This document shows positions 2,512-64,000 of a DNA stretch of 64,000 nucleotides, piece by piece; the stretch's first letter is position 1; each line of letters starts with the position of its first letter. Below the pieces are notes generated by a model. The model made no database searches, was not told the origin of the DNA, and worked only from the letters and a program-made list of their open reading frames with translations. The stretch comes from an uncultured Rickettsiales bacterium. Its GTDB lineage: Bacteria > Myxococcota_A > UBA796 > UBA9615 > CAYRNR01. The position numbers and the translations under genes were made by a program. The stretch covers positions 14,612 through 78,611 of the forward strand of contig CAZLEO010000002.1 in the NCBI GenBank assembly GCA_964558555.1, in the 5' to 3' direction.

Positions 2512-2559
2512 CATAGGTTCGAGTCCAAGCGCCGGCCCGATCGGCGAAGGGAAAGCGAT

Positions 2560-13579: not shown

Positions 13580-13585
13580 TCCTCG

Positions 13586-14911: not shown

Positions 14912-14956
14912 TCCATTTCGGGGACTGTCGCTGAGGGCGCCGTCGGTTTATCTTCG

Positions 14957-25346: not shown

Positions 25347-25356
25347 CGGGTCCTCC

Positions 25357-32862: not shown

Positions 32863-32874
32863 GGGGATACGACG

Positions 32875-33822: not shown

Positions 33823-33833
33823 GAGAGGGACGC

Positions 33834-35622: not shown

Positions 35623-35712
35623 CAACCGGGAATCCGAGTCCGGGCAGCCACAGCGTGAATCTCCATCGAGCCCCGATGGCTCTATGCAGATGAACCCCGG
35701 AGGACGAACCCC

Positions 35713-39852: not shown

Positions 39853-39959
39853 GACTCCTCCGGGTGTTCCGGTGGGAGGAAGCTGCAATCGCTGTGCCAT
39901 CGAAGATCTGCTGCGTTGGGGCGGCGGATGCGGTACATCTCCGTCGAAGAGGAGGGCAC

Positions 39960-41180: not shown

Positions 41181-41276
41181 CGTGGGTGTCCACCGTGGGA
41201 ATCCACGACCTCACCGACGATCCCCTCACGAGCCTGCAGGCGTCGAAAACCTCCGGACCACCGTGACACCACTGGT

Positions 41277-42416
41277 ATGCTCGCCGAGGAGGGACCCGTG
41301 CGCACTTCTCTGTTCGTCGCCCTGACCGCGGTCGTCGGCTTGCTCGTCGGCTGTGGGGACGAGGCGGCGGACGACTACGCGCCGGACGACGACGCGGTGG
41401 GCGACGACGACGTGGCTTCGGACGACGACGTTGCTGCGGTGCCCGTCGAGATCACCGAGACCTACCCCGTCGCCGGGGCCACCGACGTCTATCACCGCAA
41501 CGACCTCATCGTGTGGTTCGACGGGATCGCGGATCAGGTCGAGACCACGCTCGTCGACGACGACGGAGATCCCATCGAGGGGGTACTCGCGTTCAACAGC
41601 GAGTCCGCGTCCACGACCGTGGCAACGTTCGATCCCTACGGCGAGAGCGAGAACCAGCACCTCGATCCCAGCACTGCCTACACTGCGACCGTGACCTGGG
41701 TCCATCACGATCCCGTCACCTGGGAGTTCGTCACGAGCGAGGTCGGAGCGCCGGTCACCGACGTGGCCTCGCTGGTCGGGCGTGACTTTCGGCTGGACCT
41801 GGCCTCGGCCCGCTTCACCCAGCCAACCGGGGTGGGCAGCCTGCTGGGGCAGTACCTGGGCGATCTGGATCTGATCGCCCACATCGCGTCCATCGAGGAC
41901 ACGGACATCCAGATCCACGTCGGGAGCGTGGAAGTGGCGGACGGTGCCTACACGCAGGACCTGTGCGATCCCACGCTGGCCATGACCAGCGTGGACGGCG
42001 ATCCCGGTCCTGGGCTCTTCGACAATCCCTACGTGCACTTCGGCCCGGGCGATCTCCACCTGGCCATCGAGGGGTACGAGGCCACGCTGCTCCACGTGGA
42101 GATCGGCGTCAGCTTCACCGCGGACGGTGCCGCCCTCGCCGGTGGGACGCTGGACACGTTCATGGAGGTGGTGGGGGTCGGCTTCCCCGAGGATCCGGGC
42201 GCCGAGTGCGACTTGCTGGAAACGCTCGGGATCGAGTGTGTCGACTGCCCGGATGGGTCGGGGGAGTATTGCCTGCCCGTGTCCGCCTTCGACATGGCCG
42301 GTGAGAGGGTCGATGTCAGCGGAGTCCATCCCGAGACCGGTGAGCCGACGCAAGGATTGGTGGAGGTGACCGAGGAGATGATCACGGCCTGGAGGGCCGA
42401 GGACCTCTGCCCCTGA
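41277..42416 (+). CDS. Hypothetical lipoprotein with poly-Asp linker
   Basis: Signal plus lipobox LLVGCG, followed by DEAADDYAPDDDAVGDDDVASDDDVA. The overlapping minus-strand ORF 41226..43331 is Ser/Arg-rich antisense noise. Confidence 0.55.
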   Translation: MLAEEGPVRTSLFVALTAVVGLLVGCGDEAADDYAPDDDAVGDDDVASDDDVAAVPVEITETYPVAGATDVYHRNDLIVWFDGIADQVETTLVDDDGDPIEGVLAFNSESASTTVATFDPYGESENQHLDPSTAYTATVTWVHHDPVTWEFVTSEVGAPVTDVASLVGRDFRLDLASARFTQPTGVGSLLGQYLGDLDLIAHIASIEDTDIQIHVGSVEVADGAYTQDLCDPTLAMTSVDGDPGPGLFDNPYVHFGPGDLHLAIEGYEATLLHVEIGVSFTADGAALAGGTLDTFMEVVGVGFPEDPGAECDLLETLGIECVDCPDGSGEYCLPVSAFDMAGERVDVSGVHPETGEPTQGLVEVTEEMITAWRAEDLCP

Positions 42417-42438
42417 ACGCCGCGGAGTAGGAGGGGAC

Positions 42439-45400
42439 GTGCGCCGAGCTATCGCCATCGCCCTGCTGGTCCTGGTTCCCGTTGGCGCGCTCGGCCCGGT
42501 CCCGGTCACGGCGGCGCCACCCGAAATACGTGAAGAGACCATCGTGACGCGGGAGGAGGGCGTCTCCCCTGACGAGAAGTACGGGGAGGTCGCGAGCTGG
42601 TACGAACCTCTGGGTGGCCTGGGGATGGTCCTGCGCGAGATCCAGATCGATCCGTCGTCCGAGGCAGGCGCTTCCGCGACCGTCCATCCGCTGTCCGAAG
42701 AACGCGCTCGGGAGCTGCTGCAGCGCGCCGATCCCATCGACACGGGCGAGACGGTGCCGGAGCCGTTCGCCGTGCGGCAGGGGCCCCGTCCGAGATCGCA
42801 AGAGGCGGAGCGGATCGTCCTTGCGGCGGACTCGCACAGGTCCGCGTCCGTCCCGGAAGTCGAGAGAGGAACGGACGTCCTGGAGGTCGTGCGGTACGCG
42901 CCGGAGGGGGACGCGGGCCGGCCGTTCCAGGTCTCGATCGTGTTCTCGCAGCCCATGGTGGCGCTGTCGGCGGTGGAGGGAACGGACGCGGATGGGTTTG
43001 CGCGCATCGAACCCGAGATGCCCGGGCGCTGGCAGTGGCTGGGCAACCGCACGCTGGTCTTCGAGCCCGAAGGTGACTTCACGCCGGCGACGACCTTCGA
43101 CGTGACCGTGCCTGCGGGGACGCGGTCCGCATCCGGGGGCGCGCTCGCCGAGGCGCTGGAGTTCGGGTTCGAGACGGCGCCGATCGGGGTCCTGTACACG
43201 ACCCTCGAGGACGTGCTCCAGCGGCTGCAGCCCGTGGTCTTCGTCGCATTCGACCGCAAGGTGGACCGTGAGCAGATTCTGGCGCAGATGCGGCTGGAGG
43301 GAGGAATCTCTCGTCGGCTACGTCTGCTCACGGACGAGGAGAACGACGAGGTCGGGGATCAGTACGTCGACTGGTTCGACGAGAGATACGGCGCGGGCTC
43401 GTGGCTCGCCGTGAGGCCGGCCGAACCGCTGGAGCCGAATACCGGGTACAGCTTTGTGCTGGGTGACGGCGCTGGGGGAGCGGAGCAAGAACGGTTCGAA
43501 CCCTCCTCGTTCCCGTTCCGTACCTATGGGCCCTTGCGGCTCACCGGGCACGGCTGTGACTCGGGCTGGTCCAGCGATGACCTCACCGAGGAATGCGACG
43601 GTTCCGACCGGTGGGTCGCCGAGTTCGCCAACCCCCTCGAGAGGGACCAGGGGAGCGCCATCTCGGTAACGCCGGCTGACCCCGAGATGACCGTGGAGAC
43701 TGGGTGGAAAGGTGTCGAGGTACGCGGAGTCCGCGAGGCAGGTGTTCGGTACACCGTCACGATCCCCCCCGGCCTGAAGGACGTGCACGGGCAGACGCTG
43801 GGCGAGGCGGTTCAGCTCGAGTTCACGTTCGACTCGGTCCGGGACAGGAGCACGGCCCAGCTGTTCCTGCCTGGCACGGCGATGGTCGTGGCCGATCCCA
43901 CCGCGCCTCCGTGCTACGAGTTCTCCAGCACCGACCTCGAGTCCGTCCGGGTGCGGATCCACCGATCCGACGATCCAGCCGGGGATCTGACCGCGTGGGT
44001 CGAGGACTACCTGGCCACCTACGACCCCGAAGAGCCCGAACACCCCCGCCCGGGCACCCTGGTCAGCGACGAGGTCCACACCCTCGCGGGCGACGAGGGG
44101 GAGCGCGTCGAGACGCGAATCGACCTGCAGCCGTACCTGATCGATGGCCACGGGCAGTTCATCCTCTGGTTCGAGCCCGGCCGCGCGCTCGGCGGCTTCC
44201 ACTTCTCGTCGCGCCGCAGCGTCTGGGTCCAGGTGACCGACATCGGCCTGACAGCCCTCGAGTCGGGCGGGGAGCTCCTGGTCTGGGCCACCGGCCTGAC
44301 CGACGGTGCGCCCCTTCAGGACGTGGACCTGCAGCTGCTCCCGGCCGGCACGAGTCACTCCCGTACTGACGCCGAGGGCCTGGCGCGCCTCGAGATGAGC
44401 ACGAACGCCGAGGACCAGAGGTGGGTGCTGGCGCTCCGGGGTCCCGACAAGGCCCTCCTGGATTCGGGAGATCCGGTCTCTTTGTACGAGTCCGCGAAGA
44501 GCTGGCGCGCGAGCACCTGGGACGGCCGGAGCTACCGCTGGTACATCGACGATCCCCGCGGCCTGTACCGCCCCGGGGAGACCGCCCGCGTCAAGGGCTG
44601 GATCCGCGACGTGGAGCAGAGCGCCGCCGGCTTCGACCCGTGGGCTGCCGCCCCACCTCCGACGCTGGATTGGCGGCTGTACGAACCCAGCTGGCGCGCC
44701 GTCCACGAACCGTATTCCACCGTCGTGATCGCCGAGGGAACCACCGCGGTCGACGAGCTCGGCGGCTTCGACATCGCCGCTGACCTGCCCGATGACGTAT
44801 CCCACGGGTATGCGCACCTGGAGGTCTCGGTTCCGGGCGAACCGGAGACCTCGACTGCGGATCGGCGCCATGCGTTCGAGGTCGAGGAATACCGCAAGCC
44901 CCGGTTCACCGTCGGCATCTCACCGTCGCACGACACCAGCATGGCGGGCGAGGAACTCGTCTTCGACATCCGTACGACGCTGCTCACGGGCGGGGGACTC
45001 GCCGGCGCCGAGCTGTCGGGGTACGTGGACGCCTCGGTGGCATCGTTCCGGCCGCCAGGGCACGACGAGTTTCGGTTCGGTCCCTGGACGCCGTGGTGGT
45101 CCGGGAGCGTCCGGGGAGGCTTCGGCGGCCGGTACTTCTACGACGGGATCGCCGACGGACGGGGCGAGTACCGCCTGGGCGTGGAGTTCGCGTCGTCGAA
45201 TCCGCCGCGTCCGTGGCTGGTCGGCGGGGCCGTGTACGCGCGGGACCAGGCCCGTCAGCGCTGGACGGCGTACAGCGATCCCGTCCTGGTCCACCCGGCG
45301 GAGCTCTATGTCGGCCTGCGCTCGGCGAGCTCTCTCGTCCGCGCTGGCGAGCCCTTCGACGTCGAGGCGCTGGTCGTGGACCTTCGGGGAGAGGTGGTCC

Positions 45401-48400
45401 ATGACGCGGACGTCCGCATGACCCTGGTCCAGCAGAAGGGGTGGTCGGTCGTCGATGGGCACCACGTCATGGAGGAGGCCGATGTCGGCGAGTGCAGCCT
45501 GATCGCCGGCGCGGCGTCCAGGTCCTGCCGTTTCGAGGTCGACGAGGCCGGCCGCTACCGGGTCGTCGCCCGTATCGCCGATGCGGCGAACCGGCCCAAC
45601 CAGACGGACTTGTACCTCTGGATCGCGGAGGCCGACGATGATGGCGGGGGGACCGGCCGGTGGTCCAGGCTGGCCGTGGAGGGCCTCGAGCTGGTCCCGG
45701 GCACCCAGGACGTCCAGCCCGGTGACACGCTCGAGCTGCTGGTGCGATCCCCGGTCTACCCATCGACCGGCCTGCTGACCACGTCGATCCACGGGATCGT
45801 CCTGCGCACCGAGCTGTTCAGAATGGACGGTCCGACGGCGACCCTGCGGATCCCGATCGTCGAGGCTCACGTGCCCCTGGTCCAGATCGGCGTTTTTGTC
45901 GTGGCGGCCGAGGGAGGCGGTTCCGCAGGTGGTCCGGGGCGAGCCGAACCGCGCTGGCCGTCGTCCCGCAAGGCTGCCGTGAACCTCTCCGTCCCGCCCC
46001 TCGACCGCGCCCTGGAGGTGAGCGTCGAGCCGGACGCGGCCGACCTGCAACCGGGCGACGAGACACCCCTGAGGGTCCGGGTGGCCGACAGCTCGGGCGC
46101 TCCCGTCCAGGGTGCCCAGGTGACGCTGGCCGTGGTGGACGAAGCCATCCTGCAGCTCTCCGACCACGAGTGGCTCGATCCCTTGTGGTTCTTCTACGAA
46201 CCCGCGTACGGCCACTGGCTCGACTACCGGCACCAGTTCGTCGGCCCCTACCCGGGCGTCTGGACCGGCCGGGACCTCCGCAACACGGTCCTGCTGGCTA
46301 CCCCGCCCCAAGGCCAGGCCGATGGGCCCGGGAACGCCGAGCAAACTCTCCGGGGAACCGGGCGCCATCCCCGATACCGGCCGTGGGATTGGGTCGCCGG
46401 AGATCCCTTCTCCAACATGAGCCGCGATATCCCTCCCGGCGTTCCGAGACCGATCCCCTCGCGCAAGGACTTCGGCCCCCTCGCCCTGTTCGAACCGGCG
46501 GTCCTCACCGACGCCGACGGCCGCGCCGTCGTGCCCCTGCACGCGCCCGGATCGCTGACCCGCTACCGGATCACCGCCCTGGCCGCCACCCGCGACCAGT
46601 TCGGACTCGCCGAGTCCTCGATCACGGCCCGACGCCCGCTCATGGTCCGGCCCTCGCCGCCGCGATTCCTCAACGTCGGGGACCGCTGCGAGTTGCCGTT
46701 GCTGGTGGAGAATCGCACCGACCTGTCCCTGAACGTGGAGCTGGCCGTACAGGCCCTCAATGCCGATCTCGGGAACGACGACGGGTACTCTTCCGATCCG
46801 GTCGGCCGCGAACTCGTTCTTCCTCCCCGCACCCAGGTCGAGGTCCGCATCCCGGTGGCATCCAGGCTCCCCGGACAGGCCCGGTTCCAGGTGGTGGCTT
46901 CGTCAGACGACTTCACCGACGCCGTCGTCTTCGACGTCCCCGTGTGGACCCCCGCGGCGGCCGAGGAGGTCGCGGTCTACGGAACGCTCGAGGCCGGCGC
47001 GGTCGCCGTCCCGGTGCGCGCCCCGCCCGACGTCTGGACCGAGGCAGGTGGACTGCAGGTCGACCTGTACGCCTCCAGGCTGCAGGGGCTCGCCGATGCC
47101 GGGCACTACCTCGAGCGCTACGTCCCCAGCTGCAGCGAGCAGGTGGCATCGCGGATCCTGGCCCAGCTCGCGCTCGGGGACACGTTCGGCCCGACAGGGG
47201 ATGGCAGCGCGACACAGCGCAGGGATCGCAGGCGCGCAATCGAGGCGGATCTGTTCCTGCTCGAGGGGCGGCAGTCCCACGATGGGGGGTTCTACACGTG
47301 GCACTCCTCCAGGCGCGCCTCACCGTTCGTCAGCGTCCACGTGATCCACGCACTGGTCCTTGCCCGCACGGCTGGATTCCAGATCCGCGACGAGGTGATG
47401 GACGAAGCCGATGTCTACCTCGGCGGCCTCGCCGCGAACCTCGACGAGGGCTACCCCGTGGACGCCGCCCGGTCGATCCGGGCCTACGCCCTGTACGTCC
47501 GCCATCTCATGGGCGATGACGATGTGGACGCTGCACGCACGCTCGTCGCCGAGGCCGACGACGGTCAGCTCCCCCTCGAAGCCCAGGGCTGGCTCCTGCG
47601 CGTGCTGGCCGCGGGCGGGACCGAGGCCGACACGGTCCCGCTGGAGCGCAGCATTGCCGCCAGCGTCACCGAGACCGCTGCCGGCGCCCACTTCGTCACC
47701 TCCTACGGCCCAGGAGATCCCCTGCTCCTGCACTCGGACCATCGCGCCGATGCCGTGATCCTCGCCGCGCTGCTCGAAGTCGGCTCCCACGACGACCTGG
47801 TCGCCAAGCTGGCCCACGAGCTCCTCGCCAACCGTAGCGACGGCCACTGGACCAACACCCTTGAGACCGCCCTCGCCGTCGTGGCCCTCGCCCGGTATGC
47901 CGAGGTCCACGAGAGCCGCCGGCCGCGTGTCGACGCCGAGGTCTGGCTCGGCGACGCGTACGCTGGGCGCCACTCCTTCCGCACGCGCGATGCACCCCCG
48001 TCCCGCATCCACGTTCCCATGGACCACCTCGCCAACCTCGACGGCGGCCGCGACCTCGTGCTCTCACGCAAGGGCCGCGGTCCGCTGTACTACCGTGTCG
48101 GCCTGGACTACGTCCCCCGATCCCCCGACCTCCCCGCCCTCGACCGCGGCTTCGTCCTGCAGCGCCACTACCAGGCCGTGGACGATCCCGACGACGTGTG
48201 GCGCGACGACCAGGGCGCCTGGCACATCCGCGCCGGCGCCCGCGTCGAGGTCGTCGTCACCGTGCAGGTCTCTGACGAGCGCCACCACGTCTCCATCGTC
48301 GACCCCCTCCCCGCCGGCCTGGAGTTCGCCAGCGACACCGTCGCCGGCAACCAGTTCCTCAGCGACTCGGCCGACCTCCACGCCCCCGGCTGGCACGCGT

Positions 48401-48606
48401 TCCTCGATCACTACATGACCATGGACCGTCGCGACGAGCGCACCGACGTCTTCGCGTCGCTGCTCCGCGAGGGCATCCACACCCTTCGCTACGAGGTCCA
48501 GGCCACCACCCCGGGCGAGTTCGTCGCCCCTCCGACGCGGGCCGAGGAGATGTACCACCCCGAGACCTTTGGGCGGAGCGCGACGGATCGGGTGATGGTG
48601 GAGTGA
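42439..48606 (+). CDS. Alpha-2-macroglobulin-family giant protein (2055 aa) with candidate thioester motif CSEQ
   Basis: Signal peptide MRRAIAIALLVLVPVGALG. Thioester-domain-like RYVPSCSEQVASRIL (compare the A2M PYGCGEQ motif). C-terminal signature GEFVAPPTRAEEMYHPETFGRS. The size and layout resemble bacterial A2M/YfhM-like proteins. Confidence 0.7.
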   Translation: MRRAIAIALLVLVPVGALGPVPVTAAPPEIREETIVTREEGVSPDEKYGEVASWYEPLGGLGMVLREIQIDPSSEAGASATVHPLSEERARELLQRADPIDTGETVPEPFAVRQGPRPRSQEAERIVLAADSHRSASVPEVERGTDVLEVVRYAPEGDAGRPFQVSIVFSQPMVALSAVEGTDADGFARIEPEMPGRWQWLGNRTLVFEPEGDFTPATTFDVTVPAGTRSASGGALAEALEFGFETAPIGVLYTTLEDVLQRLQPVVFVAFDRKVDREQILAQMRLEGGISRRLRLLTDEENDEVGDQYVDWFDERYGAGSWLAVRPAEPLEPNTGYSFVLGDGAGGAEQERFEPSSFPFRTYGPLRLTGHGCDSGWSSDDLTEECDGSDRWVAEFANPLERDQGSAISVTPADPEMTVETGWKGVEVRGVREAGVRYTVTIPPGLKDVHGQTLGEAVQLEFTFDSVRDRSTAQLFLPGTAMVVADPTAPPCYEFSSTDLESVRVRIHRSDDPAGDLTAWVEDYLATYDPEEPEHPRPGTLVSDEVHTLAGDEGERVETRIDLQPYLIDGHGQFILWFEPGRALGGFHFSSRRSVWVQVTDIGLTALESGGELLVWATGLTDGAPLQDVDLQLLPAGTSHSRTDAEGLARLEMSTNAEDQRWVLALRGPDKALLDSGDPVSLYESAKSWRASTWDGRSYRWYIDDPRGLYRPGETARVKGWIRDVEQSAAGFDPWAAAPPPTLDWRLYEPSWRAVHEPYSTVVIAEGTTAVDELGGFDIAADLPDDVSHGYAHLEVSVPGEPETSTADRRHAFEVEEYRKPRFTVGISPSHDTSMAGEELVFDIRTTLLTGGGLAGAELSGYVDASVASFRPPGHDEFRFGPWTPWWSGSVRGGFGGRYFYDGIADGRGEYRLGVEFASSNPPRPWLVGGAVYARDQARQRWTAYSDPVLVHPAELYVGLRSASSLVRAGEPFDVEALVVDLRGEVVHDADVRMTLVQQKGWSVVDGHHVMEEADVGECSLIAGAASRSCRFEVDEAGRYRVVARIADAANRPNQTDLYLWIAEADDDGGGTGRWSRLAVEGLELVPGTQDVQPGDTLELLVRSPVYPSTGLLTTSIHGIVLRTELFRMDGPTATLRIPIVEAHVPLVQIGVFVVAAEGGGSAGGPGRAEPRWPSSRKAAVNLSVPPLDRALEVSVEPDAADLQPGDETPLRVRVADSSGAPVQGAQVTLAVVDEAILQLSDHEWLDPLWFFYEPAYGHWLDYRHQFVGPYPGVWTGRDLRNTVLLATPPQGQADGPGNAEQTLRGTGRHPRYRPWDWVAGDPFSNMSRDIPPGVPRPIPSRKDFGPLALFEPAVLTDADGRAVVPLHAPGSLTRYRITALAATRDQFGLAESSITARRPLMVRPSPPRFLNVGDRCELPLLVENRTDLSLNVELAVQALNADLGNDDGYSSDPVGRELVLPPRTQVEVRIPVASRLPGQARFQVVASSDDFTDAVVFDVPVWTPAAAEEVAVYGTLEAGAVAVPVRAPPDVWTEAGGLQVDLYASRLQGLADAGHYLERYVPSCSEQVASRILAQLALGDTFGPTGDGSATQRRDRRRAIEADLFLLEGRQSHDGGFYTWHSSRRASPFVSVHVIHALVLARTAGFQIRDEVMDEADVYLGGLAANLDEGYPVDAARSIRAYALYVRHLMGDDDVDAARTLVAEADDGQLPLEAQGWLLRVLAAGGTEADTVPLERSIAASVTETAAGAHFVTSYGPGDPLLLHSDHRADAVILAALLEVGSHDDLVAKLAHELLANRSDGHWTNTLETALAVVALARYAEVHESRRPRVDAEVWLGDAYAGRHSFRTRDAPPSRIHVPMDHLANLDGGRDLVLSRKGRGPLYYRVGLDYVPRSPDLPALDRGFVLQRHYQAVDDPDDVWRDDQGAWHIRAGARVEVVVTVQVSDERHHVSIVDPLPAGLEFASDTVAGNQFLSDSADLHAPGWHAFLDHYMTMDRRDERTDVFASLLREGIHTLRYEVQATTPGEFVAPPTRAEEMYHPETFGRSATDRVMVE

Positions 48607-48665
48607 GGGGAGCGAGAGCGCGTTGCTGGATTGAGACTCGTCGCCTCGCGGGCCTGGATCGGTCG

Positions 48666-50141
48666 CTACAAGCTCCACGGATCGATGTCCCAGTCCCGTT
48701 GATGGGCTTCTCCCGGGATCGGGACCAGGTCCTGGGGCCCCAGGTAGGCGGTCTCTCCCCCGGTGATCGTGACCGCCCCCTCCCAGGCTTCGAAGCCCCC
48801 GATCTTGATGCGCACGATCACGCTCCCGGCATCGACGGAATCACAACGTAGATACCGGGAGCGGAGCAGACAGGACAGGTGGTCCCGTCCGTGCTGTGGG
48901 TGCGTCGCGAGGACCTCGACGTGAGCGTCGTCAGGGGTATCCGACGGCAGGAGCGCTTCGAGGGTGCCGCCTGGATGGAGGGTCACGTCCAGGACGGTCT
49001 CTCCCTGCTGAAGACGTGCCCCTTCCCAGCCGTATCCTTCCGCGGTGCACTCGACGAAGGAGCCCAGGGGCGTCGTGTTGCATACGTCGGCGAGGCCGTC
49101 TCGGTCCGTGTGGACGACCTCGCCGGAGCTGAGGGCGCTGCGGTCCGTTCGCAGGGTCGCGACCACGCGGACGTAGGCGCCGGGTATCGGCCTGCCCTCC
49201 TCGTCATGGACGAAGACGGACCAGCAGCTGTCGGGCTCGAGCTCGATCGTGGCGGGTTCCGGGCAGGCGCCACCGTCGTGCCAGTGCAGCTCGACGAACG
49301 AGGGCCGATACCCGTCCAGGTCCGCGTGGATCGTCCAGTCGCCGGACAGCAGCGAGGGAAGGGCGAAGCTGCCGTCCTCGTCGCTGTTCGTGGTGTACGA
49401 GAAGTATCGGCCGCGCGTCTCCGGGTGCCTGGCCGAGTAGGCGTCGGGGTCGCCGCGGAGCATGTCGCCCAGGTAGTGGGAGGGATCCGCAGCCACCTGA
49501 GCTACGAGGGGTTCACCGTTCACGTCACGCACCTCGCCTCGGATGGAGCAGGCCTCCTCGAGGACGATGTCGCGGCGGATACGAAACGGCAGCTCGTCCT
49601 CTTCAGGTGGGTCGTGCTCCTCCCCGCGGCCTGGTCTCGGCCTGGTGGTCGCCGCGGCCATGCGTAGCGGGCAGATGTCCTGGGGTGGCAGCTCGTAGTC
49701 GCCCTGCTCGTCCGTCTCGATGCCGGTGTCGATCCAGGTTCCGCCCCCCACGGATCCCGTTCGCTTGTTGGTCAGGATCTCGATTCGAGCCCGCTGTGCG
49801 GGGGTCGTGTCAGCCCAGCGGACCGACCCGAACGGCTGACAAGGCGGCGGTCGATTCGCGGGATCGTTCATGACCCGCAGGCGCATGGCCATGACCTCGT
49901 CCAGCCACTCGGTGTGGAACGGCTCGGTGCCGAAGAGGTCGTCGCGGGGGACGTGTCCGGCGGAATGGGAGCGGTCTGCGGGAAGGGTGGTCTGGTCATC
50001 CACGCTCGGCCCGGGACGCCCCTCCGAAGCGGGGCTGCTGCGGTCGGTGACCGACCGCCCGAGGACGATCACCACCACCGCCAGGACGAGGACCGACACG
50101 ACCGCGAACAGCCGCTTCGTGGGCCACGCTGGCTCTCCCAT
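48666..50141 (-). CDS. Membrane-anchored protein with two carboxypeptidase-regulatory-like (prealbumin-fold) domains
   Basis: N-terminal TM LFAVVSVLVLAVVVIVL. Motifs DEDGSFALPSLLSGDWTIHADLDGYRP and GEVRDVNGEPLVAQV resemble CarboxypepD_reg-like domains. Confidence 0.55.
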   Translation of the reverse strand: MGEPAWPTKRLFAVVSVLVLAVVVIVLGRSVTDRSSPASEGRPGPSVDDQTTLPADRSHSAGHVPRDDLFGTEPFHTEWLDEVMAMRLRVMNDPANRPPPCQPFGSVRWADTTPAQRARIEILTNKRTGSVGGGTWIDTGIETDEQGDYELPPQDICPLRMAAATTRPRPGRGEEHDPPEEDELPFRIRRDIVLEEACSIRGEVRDVNGEPLVAQVAADPSHYLGDMLRGDPDAYSARHPETRGRYFSYTTNSDEDGSFALPSLLSGDWTIHADLDGYRPSFVELHWHDGGACPEPATIELEPDSCWSVFVHDEEGRPIPGAYVRVVATLRTDRSALSSGEVVHTDRDGLADVCNTTPLGSFVECTAEGYGWEGARLQQGETVLDVTLHPGGTLEALLPSDTPDDAHVEVLATHPQHGRDHLSCLLRSRYLRCDSVDAGSVIVRIKIGGFEAWEGAVTITGGETAYLGPQDLVPIPGEAHQRDWDIDPWSL

Positions 50142-50248
50142 CCCCGGACCCTCCCCTCGTGTGGTCGCCCGTAGAGTCTACACGTGTATCCGATTGTGGC
50201 CCTTGATACGCTCGTGTCACGTGAGCGTTCCATGCGTGATCGCGAGGT

Positions 50249-53200
50249 GTGACCGCGTGGGGGCGGACGTTCTGGGAAGTCGATCTGGTGATCGTTCGTA
50301 AGGCGATTCTGCTGCTCCTGGTCCTTGGATCGTGCTCCTCGCCTGGTCGGGCCGAGGGGAGCGACGACGAGCGGTTGCGGATCATCGTTCGCGAAGTCCA
50401 GCACCAGGCGACACAGACGCCCGAAGGGGGCGGAGCTGTCGGTCGGCCCCTCACCGCGGAGGAGATCGAGGCGCTGCTGGGGAGAGTGGAGCCCCTGCCC
50501 GCTGTTCCGACGGCCGACGCGTCGTTCACGGTGCTCGGATCGAGGGCTCGTCCGCGGGGGACCGACGCCGCCGTCGACGCGCCGTTCCCGCCGGCGAGGG
50601 GGCAGCGCGCCGAGGTCCCGCACGCCGATGGTGCGGAGGAGTCGGGCGTACTGGAGGTCCTGCGGTTCGCGCCGGACGGGGTGGTGGACCGCGAAGCGGT
50701 GGTGTCCGTCACGTTCTCGCAGCCCATGGTCGGGGTGGGGGAGCAGGCGCGAGTGGGAATCCCAACGCCTGCTCGCCTGGAGCCCGAGCTCCCGGGGACC
50801 TGGCAGTGGTTGGGGACCCGGACGCTGGTCTTCGAGCCCGCGGAGTCGCTCCCACCGGCCAGCCGGTTCGAGGTCACCGTGCCCGCCTCGACGCAGTCGA
50901 TGCGCGGCGAGGAGCTCGCCGAAGATGTGACGTTCGGCTTCTCGACGCCGCCCCCACGGCTGCGCTCCGGGTCCCCGACCGGCACCGTGCAGGATCGATC
51001 TCCGGTCGTCTTCCTCGTCTTCGATCAGGTCGTGGTCGGGTCCCAGGCCGCAGAGCGGATCGAGCTGGTGGGAGAACGGAGCCACGAGCTGCGACCGGCC
51101 ACCACGGAGGAGATCCGCCAGGAGGAGGAGCCTGACTGGTTCGACAGACGCTACGGTGCCGGCCGCTGGATCGCGCTCGAGCCCGTCGAGCCCCTGCCCC
51201 TCGCCACCGAGTTCAAGGTGACGGTGGCGCCGGTGCCCGGCGTGCCGGACGCACCCCTGCGTGAGCGAGAGGACGACTCGTTCACGTTCACCACGTTCGG
51301 GCCGCTGGAGATCGTGGCCCACCACGGGATGTACGAGTCCGAGTCGTCGGCCTGCCCGGTGGTATCACCGTGGGAGATCGTCCTGAACAACCCCCTCGAT
51401 CCCGACCGGCCGCCCACGGTCTCAGTGCGCCCGGAGCTGCCCGGACTCGAGATCACCGTCGAGGGGAACAAGCTGATCGTCGACGGTGAGCGGGACCGCG
51501 AGACGACCTACACCGTCACCGTCCACGGGGGGCTGCGCGACGTCCACGGCCAGACGCTGGGACGTTCCAGGCAGGTGGTGTTCCGGACCATCCCCTCGCG
51601 GCGGTACCTCGCCGGCCCGCGCGGCGAGCTGATCACCCTGGATCCCGCGGGCCCTGCGACCGTCCCCGTGTACACGGTCAACCACGACTCTCTGAGGGTG
51701 CGCATCCACCGCGTGGACGACGTGATGGGCGACTGGGAGACCTGGCTGCGCTTCTTTCATACGACAGCTCATCCCCGCCAGTGGGACGACCGCCCCCCAC
51801 TGCCTCCCCTGCCGGGGACGGTCCTGTTCGACGCCGAGGTGGACATCGTGGGTGCCCTGGATGATCTCGCCGAGACGCCCGTGGACCTGTCGCCGTACCT
51901 GGTCGATGGCCACGGGCAGTTCATGCTCTGGATCGAACCGACGGACCAGGATGAGTCGTCGCGGAGGATCGACGAGGTGGTCGCCTGGGTCCAGGTCACC
52001 GATCTCGGGCTGACCGCATTCAGCGACCAGGACCAGTTGTTGATCTGGGTCACCGACCTGGCGACAGGGCAGCCGCTGGAGGGCGTGCCGGTCGATCTCC
52101 TCCCCGGAGCCGAGCCGGGGGTTCCGAGCGATGCCGCGGGATGGGTCCGGATCGAGCGGCCCGGTCTGGAGAAGTTGGCCGTGGCGCGGCGCGGTACGGA
52201 CGTGGCGATCCTGCCCGAATTCGACATGTCCTGGACCGATCACTGCCACTGGCACCGGTATTACGACCGCCCCCCTCGGCAGATCTGGTTCGTGATGGAC
52301 GACCGGGGACTGTACCGACCGGGTGAGACCGTCCATCTCAAGGGATGGCTGCGGAACAGGAACCGGGAGACCGACGAGGTCACGCCGCGTATCGAGGGTC
52401 TGCCCGAGGAGGTCCAGTGGCGATTGTGGCAGCCCACGGCGTACGGGGACGACCCGCCCGCCGATCTGGCCAGAGGTGACGCCGCGGTCGGCGATCTGGG
52501 TGGCTTCTCCGTGGAGCTCGAGCTGCCGGCGGACATGGAGCCGGGAGACGCGCACCTGACGTTCTGGCCGGCGGGAGTGGAGAACCCCGGCTGGGCCGAA
52601 CGGCATGTCCACGATTTCCGCGTCGAGGCGATGCGGAATCCAGAGTTCACCGTCGCCCTGTCGGCCGGTCCCGGCCCTGTGGTGGCGGGGGAAGAGGTCG
52701 TCGTCGGTGCGACCACGTCGTACTTCAGCGGGGGCGGCCTCCCGGGCGCGTACACCTATTGGCGGCTGACCGCGCGGGGCACCCGCTATCACCCACCGGG
52801 CCACGAAGACTATGGATTCGGTTTCACCCAGCTGGGGCGCGTGGACGGACCCAGCATGGGATTCCTGGGATCGAAGGGTCTGAGTGGCCGGACCGATGCG
52901 GCGGGTGAGCACCAGATCGCCGTATCGCTGGCCGACCTCGATCCGATGGTGCCGGTCGCCGTCGAGGTGCAGGTGACCGTCGCCGACGTGAACCGCCAGC
53001 GGTGGGCCGCCACGGAGCGCCTGGTCGTGCATCCGGCGCAGCTGTACGTGGGGCTGAAGCCGGTGCGCGACGTCGTCGTCGAGGGCGAGCCCGTCGAGCT
53101 GGACGTGATCGTGGTGGACCTGGACGGAGTCCCGGTCCCCGGCATCGACGTCGAGCTGAGCATGGCCCGGCGCCAGTGGAAGATCAGCGACGGTCGCCGG

Positions 53201-56200
53201 GTGGTCTTCGAGACCGATCCGATGGAGTCGCGCACGACGTCGGAGGACGTCGCGAGGCGTGTCTCCTTCGTACCGGCGGGACCGGGAGTCCAGATCATCG
53301 AGGCCGCGGTCGTCGACGCCCACGGTCGCCGCGCGGCGACCGGAATGCGCGTCTGGGTCGCCGGTGCCTCGGTGCCGTCCGGCCTCGGTGCAGATGCCGC
53401 AGAGGTCGCGGTCACGCTGGTCCCGGAGGACGCCGAGGTCCAGCCCGGTGACGTGGCTCGCATCCACGTCACGGCTCCCTTCTACCCGGCCCACGGCGTG
53501 GTGACGGTCCGGCAGCGCAACGTGCTGACCTTCGAGACCCTCGAACTCCTGGAACCCTCGACCGTCGTGGAGTTGGATGTCCAACAGCGGCATCTGCCGC
53601 AGTTCACGGTGCAGGTGGATCTGGTCGGCTCCAGGATCGGAGACGACGGGCGGCTCCACGTGGCTCACGCGACCGGCGAGGTGACCCTGCATGTTCCGCC
53701 GAGCGATCACCGGCTGGATGTCGAGGTCGCGCCGCGTGACGAGGTCGTCGAGCCCGGCGGCCGGACAGAGATCGCCGTCGTCGTGACCGATCGGTCCGGT
53801 GAACCGGTGGCCGGGGCCGAGGTGGCGGTGTTCGTCGTGGACGAGGCGGTCCATGCGGTGAGCGGGTACGAGCTGCGACATCCCCTCGACGCCATGTACA
53901 CGCCGTCAGCGTGCTACGTGGACGACTTCCGCGGACGCGAGTACGTGGCCTCGTTCGACCAGGAGGCGGCTCGGGCCCGGGCGAGGGATCGCGAGAGCAC
54001 CCACTACTACTACCAGCTCCATCCGGAGCACGCGCATCGGTACTGCATCATCGACGATGGCAGTGACGGCGATGAAGGGGACTACTCCACGCCGGTGTCG
54101 GCCCTTCCGATCCGAGTCCGAGGCGACTTCGATCCGGTCGCCCTCTTCGTTCCAGCGGCGACCACGGACGAGCAGGGACGGGTACGCGTCCCGGTCGAAC
54201 TCCCCGACTCGCTCACTCGATATCGGGTGATGGCCGTCGTCGCCACCGTCGAGGACTTCGGCGCCGGGGAGGACTCGATCACGGCGCGTCTGCCACTGAT
54301 GGTCCGACCGTCTCCACCACGCTTCGTCGCTGCGGTCGATCGTTTCGAGTTGCCCGTCGTACTCCACAACCACACCGGCGATCCCCTCGACGTGGCGCTG
54401 GCCGTGCACGGGGACAACGCCGTCTTCGCCGAGGCCCTCGACCGGCTCGAACCCGGCGCGGTCGCAGGAGACAACACCTCGGGTGTAGCCCTCACCGTCC
54501 CCCCCCACGATCGGATGGAGGTCCGATTCCCCGCCGCGGCCGTTCAGACGGGGACCGCGCGTTTCCAGGCCGTGGCTGCGGCAGGCGTGTACGCGGACGC
54601 GTCCACCTTCGAGCTGCCGGTGAAGGCCCCGCTGCCCCTCGAGTCCTACGCGACCTACGGCACCCTCGACGGGGGCTCGCTCGCGTATGATCTGGGTCTC
54701 CCTGCCGACGCCTGGGAAGGATTCGGCGGGCTGGAGATCGACCTCTCACCCTCGCGCCAGGGCGAGCTGGTGGATGCCAGGCGCTACCTGCGGCGCTATC
54801 CCTTCGCCTGCAGCGAGCAGATCGCCAGTCGCGTGCTCGCCCTGGCCGGGCCACGACACCCGGCGGCTCGACAGGGACCGGGGACTTCTGCGAGAGGGCT
54901 GCGCAGGGCCCTCGACCAGGACCTGGCCGAGATCGTGGCGCGCCATAACGACGACGGCGGCTGGCCCCTGTGGGCCAGGGGCCACGATTCCCTCCCCTTC
55001 CTCTCGGTCCACGTGACCCACGCCCTGGTCCGCGCCCGGGAGCGCGGCCACGACGTCCCGGACGCGACGCTCGTTCAGGCCACCGCCTACCTGGCGAACA
55101 TCGACGGCCACCTCCCCGGCACCCTGTCGCCGCGGACTCGATGGACCATCCGCGCGTACGCGCTGAACGTACGCTTCCGCCACGACGGCACCGGCACTGA
55201 TGCGGCTGCCGCGCTGCTCGCAGAGGTGGGGGTGGAGGACCTCCCCGAAGAGGCGATGGGGTGGCTGCTGCCGGTGCTGGCGGGGGGTGGGGAGGCCGAC
55301 GCTGCGGCACGTATCCGGCAACAGCTGCGCGACACCGTCACCGAGACCGCCGACACCGCGCACTTCGACTCGGGCTATGGACGAGACGGATTCCGTGTGT
55401 TCCACGGCAGCTTCCGGGCCGACGCCGTCATCCTGGAGTCCCTGATCGACGTCGATCCGGACAGCGACCTGATCCCCAAGCTCGCCAGGGGCCTGCTGGC
55501 CAGCCGCGTGGACGGCCGCTGGCTCAACACCCAGGACACCGGCTTCGTCACGCGGGCCCTGACCCGGTACTTCGAGACCCACCAGGGTCATCGGCCGAGG
55601 TTCGTCACGCGTGTGTGGATCGGGGATCGCTTCGCGGGCAAGCGTGCGTTCCGTCCGGCCCGCCTCGAGTCAGCCCGTATCCGGGTCCCCCTGGCGACCC
55701 TCGCCGAGACACCCGACGGCCAGCAGCTGACCCTGGCGATGAAGGGCAAGGGACGGCTCCACTACCGGATCGGGATCGAGTTCGCCCCGCTCGATCCCGG
55801 TCAGCCTCCGCTGGATCGAGGATTCGGCATCGAGCGCGAGTACCGCGCCCTCGACGATCCCGAGGACGTCAGGCAGGGCGCGGACGGCACGTGGCACATC
55901 CGGGCGGGAGCCCGCGTCCAGGTACGCCTCGTCCTGGATTCGAGCTCGCACCACCACCACGTGGCCCTGGTCGATCCGCTGCCCGCGGGCCTGGAGCCGG
56001 TCAACCTCGCGCTCGAGGGCACGGGTCGCGCCGACCGATCCAACGAGTGGTGGTGGCGCTACTGGTACGACCACGAGGCCATGCACGACGACCGCGTCGA
56101 GGTCTTCGCGGAGCAACTGTGGGAGGGCGCGGTCGTCTACACCTACATCGCCGAGGCCACGACTCCGGGGATCTTCGTCGCGCCAGCAGCTCGGGCCGAG

Positions 56201-56260
56201 GAGATGTACCGGCCGGAGATTTTCGGCCGCACCGGGACCGGGTGGGTGGTGATCGAGTAG
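50249..56260 (+). CDS. Alpha-2-macroglobulin-family giant protein, paralog 2 (~2000 aa), lipoprotein, with candidate CSEQ thioester motif
   Basis: Collinear similarity to 42439..48606 (VLEVLRFAPDG...SVTFSQPMVGV...PGTWQWLGTRTLVFEP; RYPFACSEQIASRVL; C-terminus GIFVAPAARAEEMYRPEIFGRT). Signal plus lipobox LLLLVLGSC. The true start may be a downstream GTG. Confidence 0.7.
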   Translation: MTAWGRTFWEVDLVIVRKAILLLLVLGSCSSPGRAEGSDDERLRIIVREVQHQATQTPEGGGAVGRPLTAEEIEALLGRVEPLPAVPTADASFTVLGSRARPRGTDAAVDAPFPPARGQRAEVPHADGAEESGVLEVLRFAPDGVVDREAVVSVTFSQPMVGVGEQARVGIPTPARLEPELPGTWQWLGTRTLVFEPAESLPPASRFEVTVPASTQSMRGEELAEDVTFGFSTPPPRLRSGSPTGTVQDRSPVVFLVFDQVVVGSQAAERIELVGERSHELRPATTEEIRQEEEPDWFDRRYGAGRWIALEPVEPLPLATEFKVTVAPVPGVPDAPLREREDDSFTFTTFGPLEIVAHHGMYESESSACPVVSPWEIVLNNPLDPDRPPTVSVRPELPGLEITVEGNKLIVDGERDRETTYTVTVHGGLRDVHGQTLGRSRQVVFRTIPSRRYLAGPRGELITLDPAGPATVPVYTVNHDSLRVRIHRVDDVMGDWETWLRFFHTTAHPRQWDDRPPLPPLPGTVLFDAEVDIVGALDDLAETPVDLSPYLVDGHGQFMLWIEPTDQDESSRRIDEVVAWVQVTDLGLTAFSDQDQLLIWVTDLATGQPLEGVPVDLLPGAEPGVPSDAAGWVRIERPGLEKLAVARRGTDVAILPEFDMSWTDHCHWHRYYDRPPRQIWFVMDDRGLYRPGETVHLKGWLRNRNRETDEVTPRIEGLPEEVQWRLWQPTAYGDDPPADLARGDAAVGDLGGFSVELELPADMEPGDAHLTFWPAGVENPGWAERHVHDFRVEAMRNPEFTVALSAGPGPVVAGEEVVVGATTSYFSGGGLPGAYTYWRLTARGTRYHPPGHEDYGFGFTQLGRVDGPSMGFLGSKGLSGRTDAAGEHQIAVSLADLDPMVPVAVEVQVTVADVNRQRWAATERLVVHPAQLYVGLKPVRDVVVEGEPVELDVIVVDLDGVPVPGIDVELSMARRQWKISDGRRVVFETDPMESRTTSEDVARRVSFVPAGPGVQIIEAAVVDAHGRRAATGMRVWVAGASVPSGLGADAAEVAVTLVPEDAEVQPGDVARIHVTAPFYPAHGVVTVRQRNVLTFETLELLEPSTVVELDVQQRHLPQFTVQVDLVGSRIGDDGRLHVAHATGEVTLHVPPSDHRLDVEVAPRDEVVEPGGRTEIAVVVTDRSGEPVAGAEVAVFVVDEAVHAVSGYELRHPLDAMYTPSACYVDDFRGREYVASFDQEAARARARDRESTHYYYQLHPEHAHRYCIIDDGSDGDEGDYSTPVSALPIRVRGDFDPVALFVPAATTDEQGRVRVPVELPDSLTRYRVMAVVATVEDFGAGEDSITARLPLMVRPSPPRFVAAVDRFELPVVLHNHTGDPLDVALAVHGDNAVFAEALDRLEPGAVAGDNTSGVALTVPPHDRMEVRFPAAAVQTGTARFQAVAAAGVYADASTFELPVKAPLPLESYATYGTLDGGSLAYDLGLPADAWEGFGGLEIDLSPSRQGELVDARRYLRRYPFACSEQIASRVLALAGPRHPAARQGPGTSARGLRRALDQDLAEIVARHNDDGGWPLWARGHDSLPFLSVHVTHALVRARERGHDVPDATLVQATAYLANIDGHLPGTLSPRTRWTIRAYALNVRFRHDGTGTDAAAALLAEVGVEDLPEEAMGWLLPVLAGGGEADAAARIRQQLRDTVTETADTAHFDSGYGRDGFRVFHGSFRADAVILESLIDVDPDSDLIPKLARGLLASRVDGRWLNTQDTGFVTRALTRYFETHQGHRPRFVTRVWIGDRFAGKRAFRPARLESARIRVPLATLAETPDGQQLTLAMKGKGRLHYRIGIEFAPLDPGQPPLDRGFGIEREYRALDDPEDVRQGADGTWHIRAGARVQVRLVLDSSSHHHHVALVDPLPAGLEPVNLALEGTGRADRSNEWWWRYWYDHEAMHDDRVEVFAEQLWEGAVVYTYIAEATTPGIFVAPAARAEEMYRPEIFGRTGTGWVVIE

Positions 56261-56319
56261 TCGATCCCGGCCGACGACCCGGCTTGACCGCCGCTGTGTC
56301 ACCTCCCACGATCCACTCC

Positions 56320-56868
56320 ATGCAGTACGAGCTCGCCACCCGCGTTGGATCCGGGGTCGTCCGCCACACCCTCGACGGCGACTACATGACCGTGGAGTAC
56401 GAAAAGACGGGCCGGCGCGACGTGATCCCGCTGGACGACGTCACGCAGCTGCACCTGCTGCGCGAGTTCGCGGGGATCTACCGGATGAAGGTCTCGCGGC
56501 GGCGCGGAAGGACGCTGTCCATCCCGTCGAGGCATTTCGAGGCGGTTGGGCAGTTCGAGGACCGGGGTCCGCAGTACGCCGAGTTCGTGCGTACGCTCCA
56601 CGCCGAGTGCCACCGCGTCACGCCGCGCACCAGGTTCGTGGCGGGGTCGACGTTCTTGTTCTGGCTGGGCTGGTTCTTCGTCGTCTGCGGCGCTGCGCTG
56701 GGGCTCCTCCTGTTGCAGGACATGGCGGCCGCGCCCTGGGCTCCGCCGCTGAAGCTCGTATGGATCCTGCCGATGATGGCCGTGGTGGGGGCGTCGCTCA
56801 TCGTGCAGGGGAGGCGGGTGCGGTACGAGCACCACTCGATCCCTGCGAAGTTCCTGCCGGGTGGCTGA
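56320..56868 (+). CDS. Hypothetical membrane protein
   Basis: 182 aa with two C-terminal TM helices. No recognised domain. Confidence 0.45.
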   Translation: MQYELATRVGSGVVRHTLDGDYMTVEYEKTGRRDVIPLDDVTQLHLLREFAGIYRMKVSRRRGRTLSIPSRHFEAVGQFEDRGPQYAEFVRTLHAECHRVTPRTRFVAGSTFLFWLGWFFVVCGAALGLLLLQDMAAAPWAPPLKLVWILPMMAVVGASLIVQGRRVRYEHHSIPAKFLPGG

Positions 56869-56903
56869 CCGCTGCGAGCCTGATCTCGCAGAACCTCGAA
56901 GGT

Positions 56904-57554
56904 TCAGAATCGCCCGACAACGGCCACGCCGGCCTCCGTGGAGGTCGCCCACGGGACGAACACGGGAACGCTCGCGGTCGCCGTCGCGGGCACCTGCTTG
57001 CTCGACGCAGCGGTGATGATCCCCGGGATCAGCATCCCCAGCGCCACGCCAGCGTGGGCGGTGATCATGATCCAGGGGAGCGGCGCGAGGGCCGGGCCCG
57101 GGCCCATGCCGTAGCTGTCGTCGGGATCCGAACTCTCCGACGTGATGGCGAGCTGTATGACCAGGTCGACCAGGGCCACCAGTCCGCTGTAGGCCGCCCC
57201 CTCGAACAGGCCGATGGAGAGGGCCCGCAGGTCTGACGCGGGGGTGCCGTCCGAGAGGAGGCGACGGAAGCCGTCGGCGGTGATCGGCGCGAACGGGATG
57301 CTCACGCCGTGAACGATGGGCCGCCCGACGCTGTACAGGTAGAAGTCCGTTCGTCCCACCGCGACCATCGTCAGGCCGACACCCTGCACCACCAGTCCCG
57401 AGACGACCATCGCGCGCCCCTGGCGCACCGTCTTGTCGCGGTCGGGGTCGGCATCGGCGGCGAACGCCGGGACCACGGATGCCACGGCCATGGCCAGTGC
57501 GATCGCGATGCTCCACGCGTCCGCGGTCCTTGTCCTCGTGCGGGCGCGGCTCAT
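56904..57554 (-). CDS. Hypothetical secreted or membrane protein, last gene of the kor-rubredoxin operon
   Basis: Start MSRARTRTRTADAWSIAIALAMAVASVVPAFAAD with signal peptide and RBS GGAGGAG. Hydrophobic C-terminal half. Confidence 0.5.
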   Translation of the reverse strand: MSRARTRTRTADAWSIAIALAMAVASVVPAFAADADPDRDKTVRQGRAMVVSGLVVQGVGLTMVAVGRTDFYLYSVGRPIVHGVSIPFAPITADGFRRLLSDGTPASDLRALSIGLFEGAAYSGLVALVDLVIQLAITSESSDPDDSYGMGPGPALAPLPWIMITAHAGVALGMLIPGIITAASSKQVPATATASVPVFVPWATSTEAGVAVVGRF

Positions 57555-57910
57555 GGGATCTCCTCCAGCACAACGGTCACGTCCTCGGTGATCACGTGGC
57601 AGAAGTCCCGGTCGACGAACACGTCGGTGAGCACCGCCTCGAACCCGTCCGCGCTGACCTCGATGTCGATGGCGCCGCTGGCCTCCCAGCCGCAGTCCCA
57701 CCGGTCCGAGTGGTCGCTGAACTCGCAGTCCTGGAATTCGGGATCGTCGCTCGATGCGACGAGGTAGCGGACTGCCGCGTCGATCACCACGTCGCCGTGG
57801 ACGTCGACCACGGTCACATGGACGGATTCAACCTCCTCTTCGGTACAGGTGCAGCCGATCCAGACGGCCATGGCGGCGGCGAGCGCCGCGAAAACGCGCA
57901 GATTCGTCAC
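57551..57910 (-). CDS. Small lipoprotein of unknown function
   Basis: GTG start with RBS GGAGGAA. Signal plus lipobox AMAVWIGCTC. 119 aa. Confidence 0.45.
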   Translation of the reverse strand: MTNLRVFAALAAAMAVWIGCTCTEEEVESVHVTVVDVHGDVVIDAAVRYLVASSDDPEFQDCEFSDHSDRWDCGWEASGAIDIEVSADGFEAVLTDVFVDRDFCHVITEDVTVVLEEIP

Positions 57911-57978
57911 GGTTCCTCCTTCGGCCCCTGCCTGGAGGATGTGAGCGAAGCAGGATTCGTGACGATCCGTCGTGCGGC

Positions 57979-63993: not shown

Positions 63994-64000
63994 CCCCGTG

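Follow-up and report, generated by a model that had tools for sequence, protein, structure and literature searches.

Two diverged alpha-2-macroglobulin-family paralogs with thioester motifs, and the gene between them, in an uncultured bacterium

What are the two giant proteins encoded in tandem in a stretch of DNA from an uncultured Rickettsiales bacterium, and does the gene lying between them belong to the same system? The stretch analysed here, hereafter the window, covers 64,000 nucleotides of contig CAZLEO010000002.1 (positions 14,612 to 78,611). An earlier note, made from its letters, had taken the giants for paralogs of the alpha-2-macroglobulin (A2M) family. It remarked on a Ser in their thioester motifs, on the lack of PBP1C or Mag genes nearby and on the membrane protein that they bracket. 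The positions of the three open reading frames (ORFs) and their convergent, then divergent, orientation proved exact:

42439-48606, plus strand: A2M-1, 2055 amino acids (aa), A2M paralog, identified by Pfam, phmmer and profile
48666-50141, minus strand: mid491, 491 aa, membrane-anchored CarboxypepD_reg protein, identified by Pfam and the alignment of its relatives
50249-56260, plus strand: A2M-2, 2003 aa, A2M paralog with the same Pfam architecture as A2M-1

The same three gene calls were found in four independent public assemblies (JGI 3300009008, two ENA metagenomes and one Logan run), which excludes an assembly artefact, and the third-position G+C of all three ORFs is that of real genes.

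We consider it quite probable that the two giants are diverged paralogs of thioester-containing bacterial A2M and, by homology, protease traps. They belong to a widespread, uncharacterised branch of ~2000-aa proteins that are YfhM/ECAM-like with ~330 extra N-terminal immunoglobulin (Ig)-like residues. Membership of the A2M family, as the earlier note had proposed, is clear from annotation with hidden Markov models. Both proteins lie above the Pfam curated cut-offs for Big_5, bMG3, A2M_BRD, A2M and bMG10, in the same order, and MG2 scores just above its cut-off in A2M-1 and just below it in A2M-2. The domains of the first copy are placed as follows:

A2M-1, Pfam domains (aa): Big_5 164-246, bMG3 599-680, MG2 705-807, A2M_BRD 1083-1240, A2M 1349-1435, bMG10 1904-2042

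A profile of 26 family members matches YfhM (E 4e-71) in blocks covering YfhM residues 98-894, 936-1315 and 1484-1606, and ~430 family residues precede the position aligned to YfhM residue 98. We further modelled two parts of A2M-1. The AlphaFold (AF2) model of aa 1340-2055, with a mean predicted local distance difference test (pLDDT) score of 81, shows domains of the macroglobulin-like (MG) beta type, a C-terminal MG domain and, at aa 1549-1824, a helical domain whose second helix has the CSEQ motif at its start:

47083-47910, plus strand: thioester domain (TED) of A2M-1, ~aa 1549-1824, taken from the model helices (fragment residues 210-485)

Foldseek matched this model to A2M, C3 and TEP structures with E values of 1e-35 to 1e-27, the top matches being native SaA2M 4u48 (E 7.6e-35) and native ECAM 5a42 (TMq 0.70). 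Because the native forms of SaA2M and ECAM (TMq 0.68-0.70) outscore protease-activated ECAM (0.39-0.41), the predicted arrangement of TED and C-terminal MG domain is the 'locked' native one. The model of aa 60-640 (pLDDT 81) opens with a disordered linker, after which Ig-like beta-sandwiches are strung one behind another; its matches in the PDB include S-layer proteins, titin, the Big_5 domains of LdtMt2 and ECAM MG0-NIE-MG1. No enzymatic domain was found in this modelled part of the N-terminal extension.

The PSCSEQ and FACSEQ motifs reported by the earlier note are both present, and the motif Cys lies, as it had expected, in a TED-like domain: the motifs of both copies are aligned with the CLEQ of YfhM, and that of A2M-1 sits in the helical domain of the model. 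The motifs of the putative thioester and of its pocket are located as follows:

47131-47142, plus strand: CSEQ of A2M-1, Cys1565-Gln1568, context RYVPSCSEQ, aligning with YPYGCLEQ of YfhM
54809-54820, plus strand: CSEQ of A2M-2, Cys1521-Gln1524, context RYPFACSEQ
48544-48555, plus strand: EEMY of A2M-1, in the C-terminal MG domain
56198-56209, plus strand: EEMY of A2M-2, in the C-terminal MG domain

In a phmmer search against PDB sequences, ryvpsCsEQvas of A2M-1 was aligned to aypygClEQtas of YfhM/ECAM, and the C, E and Q of the motif are invariant in the 26-sequence family alignment. Among the 120 best homologues, 118 carry CxEQ at the homologous place (CSEQ in 59, CAEQ in 52, CTEQ in 4 and CNEQ in 3), typically in the context YP[FY]EC[SA]EQ[LIV][SA]SR. 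The Ser at the second motif position, which the earlier note had called unusual, is thus the commonest residue of the branch. In bacterial A2Ms the TED contributes to the pocket two tyrosines, at -4 and -2 relative to the Cys, and the C-terminal MG domain contributes an RDDR and the Met-Tyr of EXMY, which in SaA2M lies over the thioester (PMC4498604). In A2M-2 these places hold Tyr (-4), Phe (-2), EEMY and HDDR. A2M-1 keeps Tyr at -4, EEMY and RDER and has Pro at -2 (YVPSC). EEMY is present in 204 of 207 family members. At -2, 196 family sequences show Phe in 114 cases and Tyr in 79, and Pro in A2M-1 only. Judged from these alignments, this Pro, not the Ser, is the one truly unusual residue of the locus.

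By homology with ECAM and SaA2M, each A2M would be exported to the cell envelope, where a foreign or escaped endopeptidase would cut the exposed hypervariable bait. Once cut, the protein would let its thioester domain come away from the C-terminal MG domain, whereupon the thioester between Cys and Gln (Cys1565/Gln1568 in A2M-1; Cys1521/Gln1524 in A2M-2) would react with the protease to give a covalent trap. Formation of the thioester in the two proteins cannot be read from sequence; we infer it, as we do protease trapping.

The branch to which the pair belongs is large. Homologues numbered more than 300 in a search of 5.8 billion proteins. Almost all of them are 1950-2100 aa long and have the same Pfam set, and many already bear the name 'alpha-2-macroglobulin family protein' or 'YfaS (alpha-2-macroglobulin family)'. 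A scan with one genome per species revealed at least 575 genomic loci, the best match having 38% identity, and the locus-level comparisons below use the best 80 of these. They come from Acidobacteriota (Blastocatellia, Pyrinomonadaceae), Chloroflexota (Anaerolineae, Ardenticatenaceae, Caldilineaceae), Myxococcota and Bradymonadales. We found no description of this long branch in the literature searched. Bacterial A2Ms are recognised there only as Type I, with a thioester and often beside pbpC, and Type II, represented by MagD (PMC5764988).

The branch A2Ms have no conserved partners in these comparisons. When every neighbour of the window pair was searched by tblastn against the 80 loci, no homologue was found, and Pfam annotation of 132 genes flanking branch A2Ms gave no recurrent partner, only clade-local associations. 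The top flanking family was PspA (8 loci in one Pyrinomonadaceae clade), CarboxypepD_reg occurred in 2, and neither PBP1C nor the Mag families were among those that recur. The earlier note was right that such genes are missing here: Transgly/Transpeptidase domains (PBP1C) were absent from the 20 window ORFs scanned, which are not the complete gene set, and from the JGI calls within 10 kb either side. Equally absent from the scanned window ORFs and the JGI calls within 10 kb were the Mag-operon families DUF1175, DUF2138, DUF2300 and DUF2135, which we take to be those of the YfaT, YfaA, YfaQ and YfaP homologues. The 132 flanking genes reveal that this absence is the rule for the branch and not a peculiarity of the locus.

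Two neighbourhoods in the branch may be recorded in their own right. A gene for PspA/IM30, a membrane-stress protein, lies divergently upstream of the long A2M in eight loci, mostly of Pyrinomonadaceae/Blastocatellia (L040, L046, L047, L071, L072, L074, L077 and L085; ~8500-9800, minus strand); no other neighbour family was seen to recur. Pairs of TldD/PmbA metalloprotease genes occur at L002:6469-9367, L064:6428-9331 and L003:19367-22221 (two Acidobacteriota, one Myxococcota). We considered TldD/PmbA as an A2M partner and rejected it, as it adjoins the A2M in L002 and L003 and recurs only in L064.

How old is the pair? The two copies are collinear, with 38% identity by BLASTP (2032 columns) and 40% by MAFFT, and share DNA repeats spaced 7.65-7.77 kb. 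They are sisters in 100 of 100 bootstraps and stand on very long branches, which indicates that the duplication is old and lineage-specific. This pairwise comparison, at ~40% identity, bears out the age that the earlier note had assigned to it. The distance between the copies is 1.18, and that to the nearest other members is 1.09-1.15; the sequences also suggest accelerated evolution in the window lineage. The bootstrap tree was built without two extra giant ORFs in L033 and L035, an earlier tree including them being arbitrarily rooted. Considered as further A2Ms, these ORFs proved unrelated, with no CxEQ and no BLAST match.

The earlier note had also drawn attention to the tandem arrangement. 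It is not noteworthy in itself: tandem A2M copies recur, independently, in Myxococcota. Four Myxococcota loci carry them; L050, L060 and L079 have a pair each, and L076 has three copies. Like the window pair, these belong to the same branch and encode ~2000-aa proteins, and their 2-3 genes stand head to tail on one strand. Their copies are directly adjacent and recent (distance 0.29-0.40, as against 1.18) and cluster together in the tree, apart from the window pair, whose genes are separated by a third. Such head-to-tail arrays of 2-3 recently duplicated long A2Ms were seen in Polyangia and Kofleriaceae, for example at L076:2-16042.

The two copies differ most clearly in their predicted bait regions and export signals. 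The baits are placed as follows:

46189-46458, plus strand: bait region of A2M-1, ~aa 1251-1340, rich in aromatics, Pro, Arg and Gly
53891-54112, plus strand: bait region of A2M-2, ~aa 1215-1288, rich in Arg, His, Tyr and Asp

Nowhere inside the proteins are the paralogs less alike than in the bait (18% identity, with gaps), which is also the most variable internal region across the family, with 84-148 residues separating the anchors. The bait of A2M-1 sits in the gap between the YfhM-aligned blocks, over YfhM residues 894-936; the disordered bait of YfhM is Arg923-Leu942 (PMC4498604). The two baits are unrelated in sequence and in composition, and the copies should, since their bait sequences are unrelated, be cut by different proteases. 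A2M-1 has a Sec-type signal peptide (VRRAIAIALLVLVPVGALGPVPVTA followed by AP) without a lipobox Cys. When A2M-2 is started at GTG 50288, which lies behind GGGAAG and is likely to be the true start, it yields MIVRKAILLLLVLGS followed by C, a lipoprotein signal with the lipobox-like LVLGSC. A lipobox was found in 25 of 120 branch proteins. Thus A2M-1, having a plain signal peptide like most members of the branch, is probably soluble, whereas A2M-2, with its lipobox, is probably a membrane-tethered lipoprotein like ECAM of Type I. Such differences would probably amount to a division of labour, which we infer only, between a soluble and a tethered trap with different protease spectra.

Some observations weigh against the reading of both copies as ordinary protease traps. 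Of the 348 positions found invariant across 24 other members, 73% are kept by A2M-1 and 77% by A2M-2, as against 93-100% by those members themselves, and this loss makes an altered or relaxed function possible in both. The lipobox of A2M-2 (LGSC) is non-canonical at -2 and hinges on the GTG 50288 start. In A2M-1, Pro replaces the Tyr or Phe at -2, a residue that helps to shield the thioester in SaA2M and ECAM. Among the family-invariant positions replaced in both paralogs are a WWW patch at ~aa 885-887 and a QNQ at ~aa 1424-1426.

The alternative that survives best builds on the pocket of A2M-1. This copy might have lost a stable thioester or changed its function, as a non-covalent trap like MagD or a neofunctionalised envelope protein, which would leave A2M-2 as the one classical covalent trap. 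Pro at -2 and Val at -3 (YVPSC versus YP[FY]xC) are peculiar to A2M-1, in which one pocket aromatic is gone and the conserved Pro is shifted (pocket roles from PMC4498604). It is also the more divergent copy by its 73% of family-invariant positions and ranks only 200th of 207 as a BLAST match of A2M-2, and MagD shows that trapping without a thioester is possible (PMC5764988). However, the C, E and Q of the motif, Tyr at -4, EEMY and RDER are all kept, the ORF is intact over 2055 codons with coding-type third-position G+C, and in the model TED and C-terminal MG domain are locked together as in native structures. We therefore regard this explanation as unlikely, though it deserves more weight than the others considered below, and keep to the reading of two thioester-type traps.

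The pair may be compared with known systems. Type I A2Ms, namely YfhM/ECAM and SaA2M (PDB 5a42, 4ziq, 4rtd and 4u48), resemble the window pair in the succession of MG domains, bait domain, CxEQ-bearing TED and C-terminal MG domain. Their thioester motifs match position by position, and Tyr at -4, EXMY and an RDDR-like motif are shared. The window A2Ms are ~350-400 residues longer, with extra N-terminal Ig-like domains including Big_5, and the modelled C-terminal half of A2M-1 has ~20% identity to ECAM. YfhM has CLEQ, whereas the window branch has CSEQ or CAEQ, and Type I is found in host-associated Proteobacteria, whereas the window branch is found in Acidobacteriota, Chloroflexota and Myxococcota. 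The linkage of Type I A2Ms to pbpC, which is frequent and not universal (PMC5764988), is found neither among the window ORFs scanned nor recurrently in the branch. Type II proteins (Pseudomonas MagD and E. coli YfaS, of magABCDEF) are, like the window pair, large multi-MG envelope proteins with a bait region, and the single-pass membrane protein near the window A2Ms superficially recalls MagB. MagD has no CxEQ, traps non-covalently and belongs to a six-gene operon (PMC5764988). In contrast, both window proteins carry CSEQ, and in place of a six-gene operon their neighbours are lineage-specific lipoproteins and membrane proteins. Human A2M, C3, TEP1 and CD109 share the fold of MG domains, TED and C-terminal MG domain (Foldseek E 1e-27 to 1e-32) and the CxEQ motif, usually CGEQ in eukaryotic thioester proteins, whereas their identity to the A2M-1 model is only 11-14%. 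The pocket residues all come from the C-terminal MG domain in eukaryotes, and two of them come from the TED in bacteria (PMC4498604).

Does the gene between the A2Ms take part? The protein mid491 is made up of a single transmembrane helix at its N-terminus, a disordered linker and CarboxypepD_reg-like beta-sandwich repeats with conserved Cys pairs (Pfam match 1.5e-14, in two stretches); no catalytic domain is recognisable in it. The earlier note had described a membrane protein with two prealbumin-like domains; its kind of protein and of domain stands, whereas the alignment of relatives suggests three to four repeats. A word-indexed search gave two relatives of mid491 with 55-65% identity, and an exhaustive HMMER search gave ~20 full-length ones with 19-38% identity in the alignment, so that the idea of an orphan could be dropped.

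One could suppose that the three genes form a dedicated module in which mid491 tethers or stabilises A2M-1, which has no anchor of its own, and perhaps also A2M-2, at the membrane. Its counterpart would be MagB, the single-pass protein by which MagD is kept at the inner membrane (PMC5764988). The position of mid491 directly between the A2Ms would fit, as would the short divergent intergenic region that it shares with A2M-2 and the lack of a lipid anchor on A2M-1. The only sigma-70-like match in the region also falls in this intergenic stretch, but at chance frequency, and the promoter and terminator scan stayed at chance level. Faint matches of mid491 to macroglobulin-like and Ig-like models (MG4, E 0.26; Big_1, E 0.021) point the same way, as does a CarboxypepD_reg-PDZ protein encoded right after the A2M in Myxococcota L003 and L022. 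The likeness of the latter to mid491 is, however, one of domains only (E 5e-4), and CarboxypepD_reg is found very widely in envelope proteins, the HMMER search having matched hundreds of proteins with such repeats. Moreover, mid491 lies on the strand opposite to the A2Ms, none of the 80 related A2M loci has a homologue of it, and no A2M was found within 1-8 kb either side, according to contig extent, of three of its relatives (28-36% identity), which lie in different contexts. A dedicated module is accordingly improbable. The membrane protein that the earlier note saw between the A2Ms is there, whereas its standing as a conserved partner is not borne out, and mid491 is most likely a mere neighbour in an accessory block of lineage-specific envelope proteins. 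The Myxococcota protein of L003:16080-18167 and L022:15837-17903, both metagenome-assembled genomes, is a membrane-anchored protein of ~690 aa on the same strand as the A2M that it directly follows, with five CarboxypepD_reg repeats and a C-terminal PDZ domain.

Least probable of all is a role outside protease defence, in which the thioester would attach to surfaces, prey or polymers (as in complement/TEP-like opsonins) or the protein would serve as an adhesin or surface layer: it would fit the long N-terminal Ig-like chain (the aa 60-640 model is an Ig-like string whose best PDB matches include S-layer SbsB, SbsC and Sap besides ECAM MG0-NIE-MG1), the occurrence of the branch mostly among free-living phyla of soils and sediments, with no PBP1C as a partner for repair, and the plain signal peptides, rather than lipoboxes, of most members, but the bait region domain, TED and C-terminal MG domain are kept together with the bait-thioester coupling motifs (EXMY, RDDR-like) as in protease-trapping A2Ms, a hypervariable bait is the hallmark of protease sensing, and the TM-scores to S-layer proteins are very low (0.13) and reflect generic Ig repeats.

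With the pair read as thioester-type traps, we turn to the setting of their genes. The window has a G+C content of ~70%. The genes next to A2M-1 and the block around the pair are as follows:

41277-42416, plus strand: up379, lipoprotein with an LLVGC lipobox, then an Asp-rich linker and a weak Big_5 Ig-like domain
39853-57978, strand not applicable: accessory block of ~18 kb with up406, up379, A2M-1, mid491, A2M-2, dn182, dn216 and dn119

The stop of up379 lies only 22 nt upstream of the start of A2M-1, so that the two genes are probably co-transcribed; A2M-1 starts with GTG, 5 nt downstream of a GGAGG ribosome-binding site. No up379 homologue was found by tblastn beside the A2Ms of the 80 related loci. 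A close relative, L097, keeps both flanks of the block, with 66-98% identity to the window proteins:

POR beta: 98% identity to the window protein
up223: 92% identity to the window protein
DUF302: 89% identity to the window protein
HEAT protein (up183): 87% identity to the window protein
RUBY-DUF2231: 82% identity to the window protein
up616: 66% identity to the window protein

In L097 (compared stretch 13500-15200), none of the 8 block genes was matched. As the flanks are kept and the block genes are not, ~39853-57978 of the window is an accessory block. A search for mobile-element signatures at the 18-kb block gave no tRNA, integrase, boundary repeat or G+C deviation. Its content is largely lineage-specific envelope proteins, several of them lipoproteins with Asp-rich linkers. 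The neighbours, up379 and up406 included, were also considered as A2M fragments and rejected, BLASTP against both A2Ms giving nothing below E 0.06.

A lipobox followed by an Asp-rich low-complexity linker recurs in the lineage-specific up616 (36193-38043), up406 (39960-41180), up379 and dn119 (57551-57910), and up406 has weak matches to the (alpha/alpha)6-barrel glycoside hydrolase families GH76 and GH127. The window holds an AcrB-type pump of the resistance-nodulation-division family (22218-25511, minus strand) and many lipoproteins, which suggests that the host envelope is diderm. Elsewhere in the window we observed a Ser/Thr protein kinase of 617 aa (14912-16765) and a multi-PAS histidine kinase of 836 aa (2320-4830). 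A sulfur-type respiratory cluster (~29687-36117) comprises a molybdopterin oxidoreductase (878-aa open frame), a 4Fe-4S protein, NrfD and Sulf_transp together with two small ORFs, a rhodanese and DUF302. A second NrfD gene lies at 62926-63999 (minus strand). At 57979-58923 (minus strand), a gene for a 314-aa protein that joins three rubredoxin-like RUBY_RBDX stretches to a DUF2231 membrane domain adjoins the alpha and beta genes of a 2-oxoacid:ferredoxin oxidoreductase (POR), an arrangement kept in L095 and L097. Beyond the POR homologues of 77% identity or more, the next group, at ~55%, comes from Chloroflexota or Armatimonadota.

All of this can be joined, tentatively, into a single broader reading that we hold to be possible yet short of probable. 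The long branch would be an unrecognised third class of A2M, which keeps the thioester, has an N-terminal Ig arm and mostly no lipid anchor, is independent of PBP1C and lives in free-living phyla. The window pair would be ancient duplicates within the accessory envelope block of 18 kb that have divided the work between a soluble and a lipid-anchored trap with unrelated baits, the pocket of copy 1 being remodelled.

Taken together, the result for the window is mainly a clean annotation that removes three apparent oddities: the motif Ser and the lack of PBP1C are ordinary for the branch, and the bracketed gene is not a conserved partner. A modest interest remains in the long branch as a whole, in the paralog-specific baits and export signals and in the Pro at -2 of A2M-1. 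The branch represents a very large environmental set of long thioester-bearing A2Ms that is without an experimental representative, and its genomic independence from PBP1C misfits the 'protease trap plus cell-wall repair' model based on enterobacteria. The window pair, whose members differ in bait, in export signal and in one pocket residue, would be a natural experiment on how such traps are tuned, an incremental rather than a surprising addition to the biology of the family.

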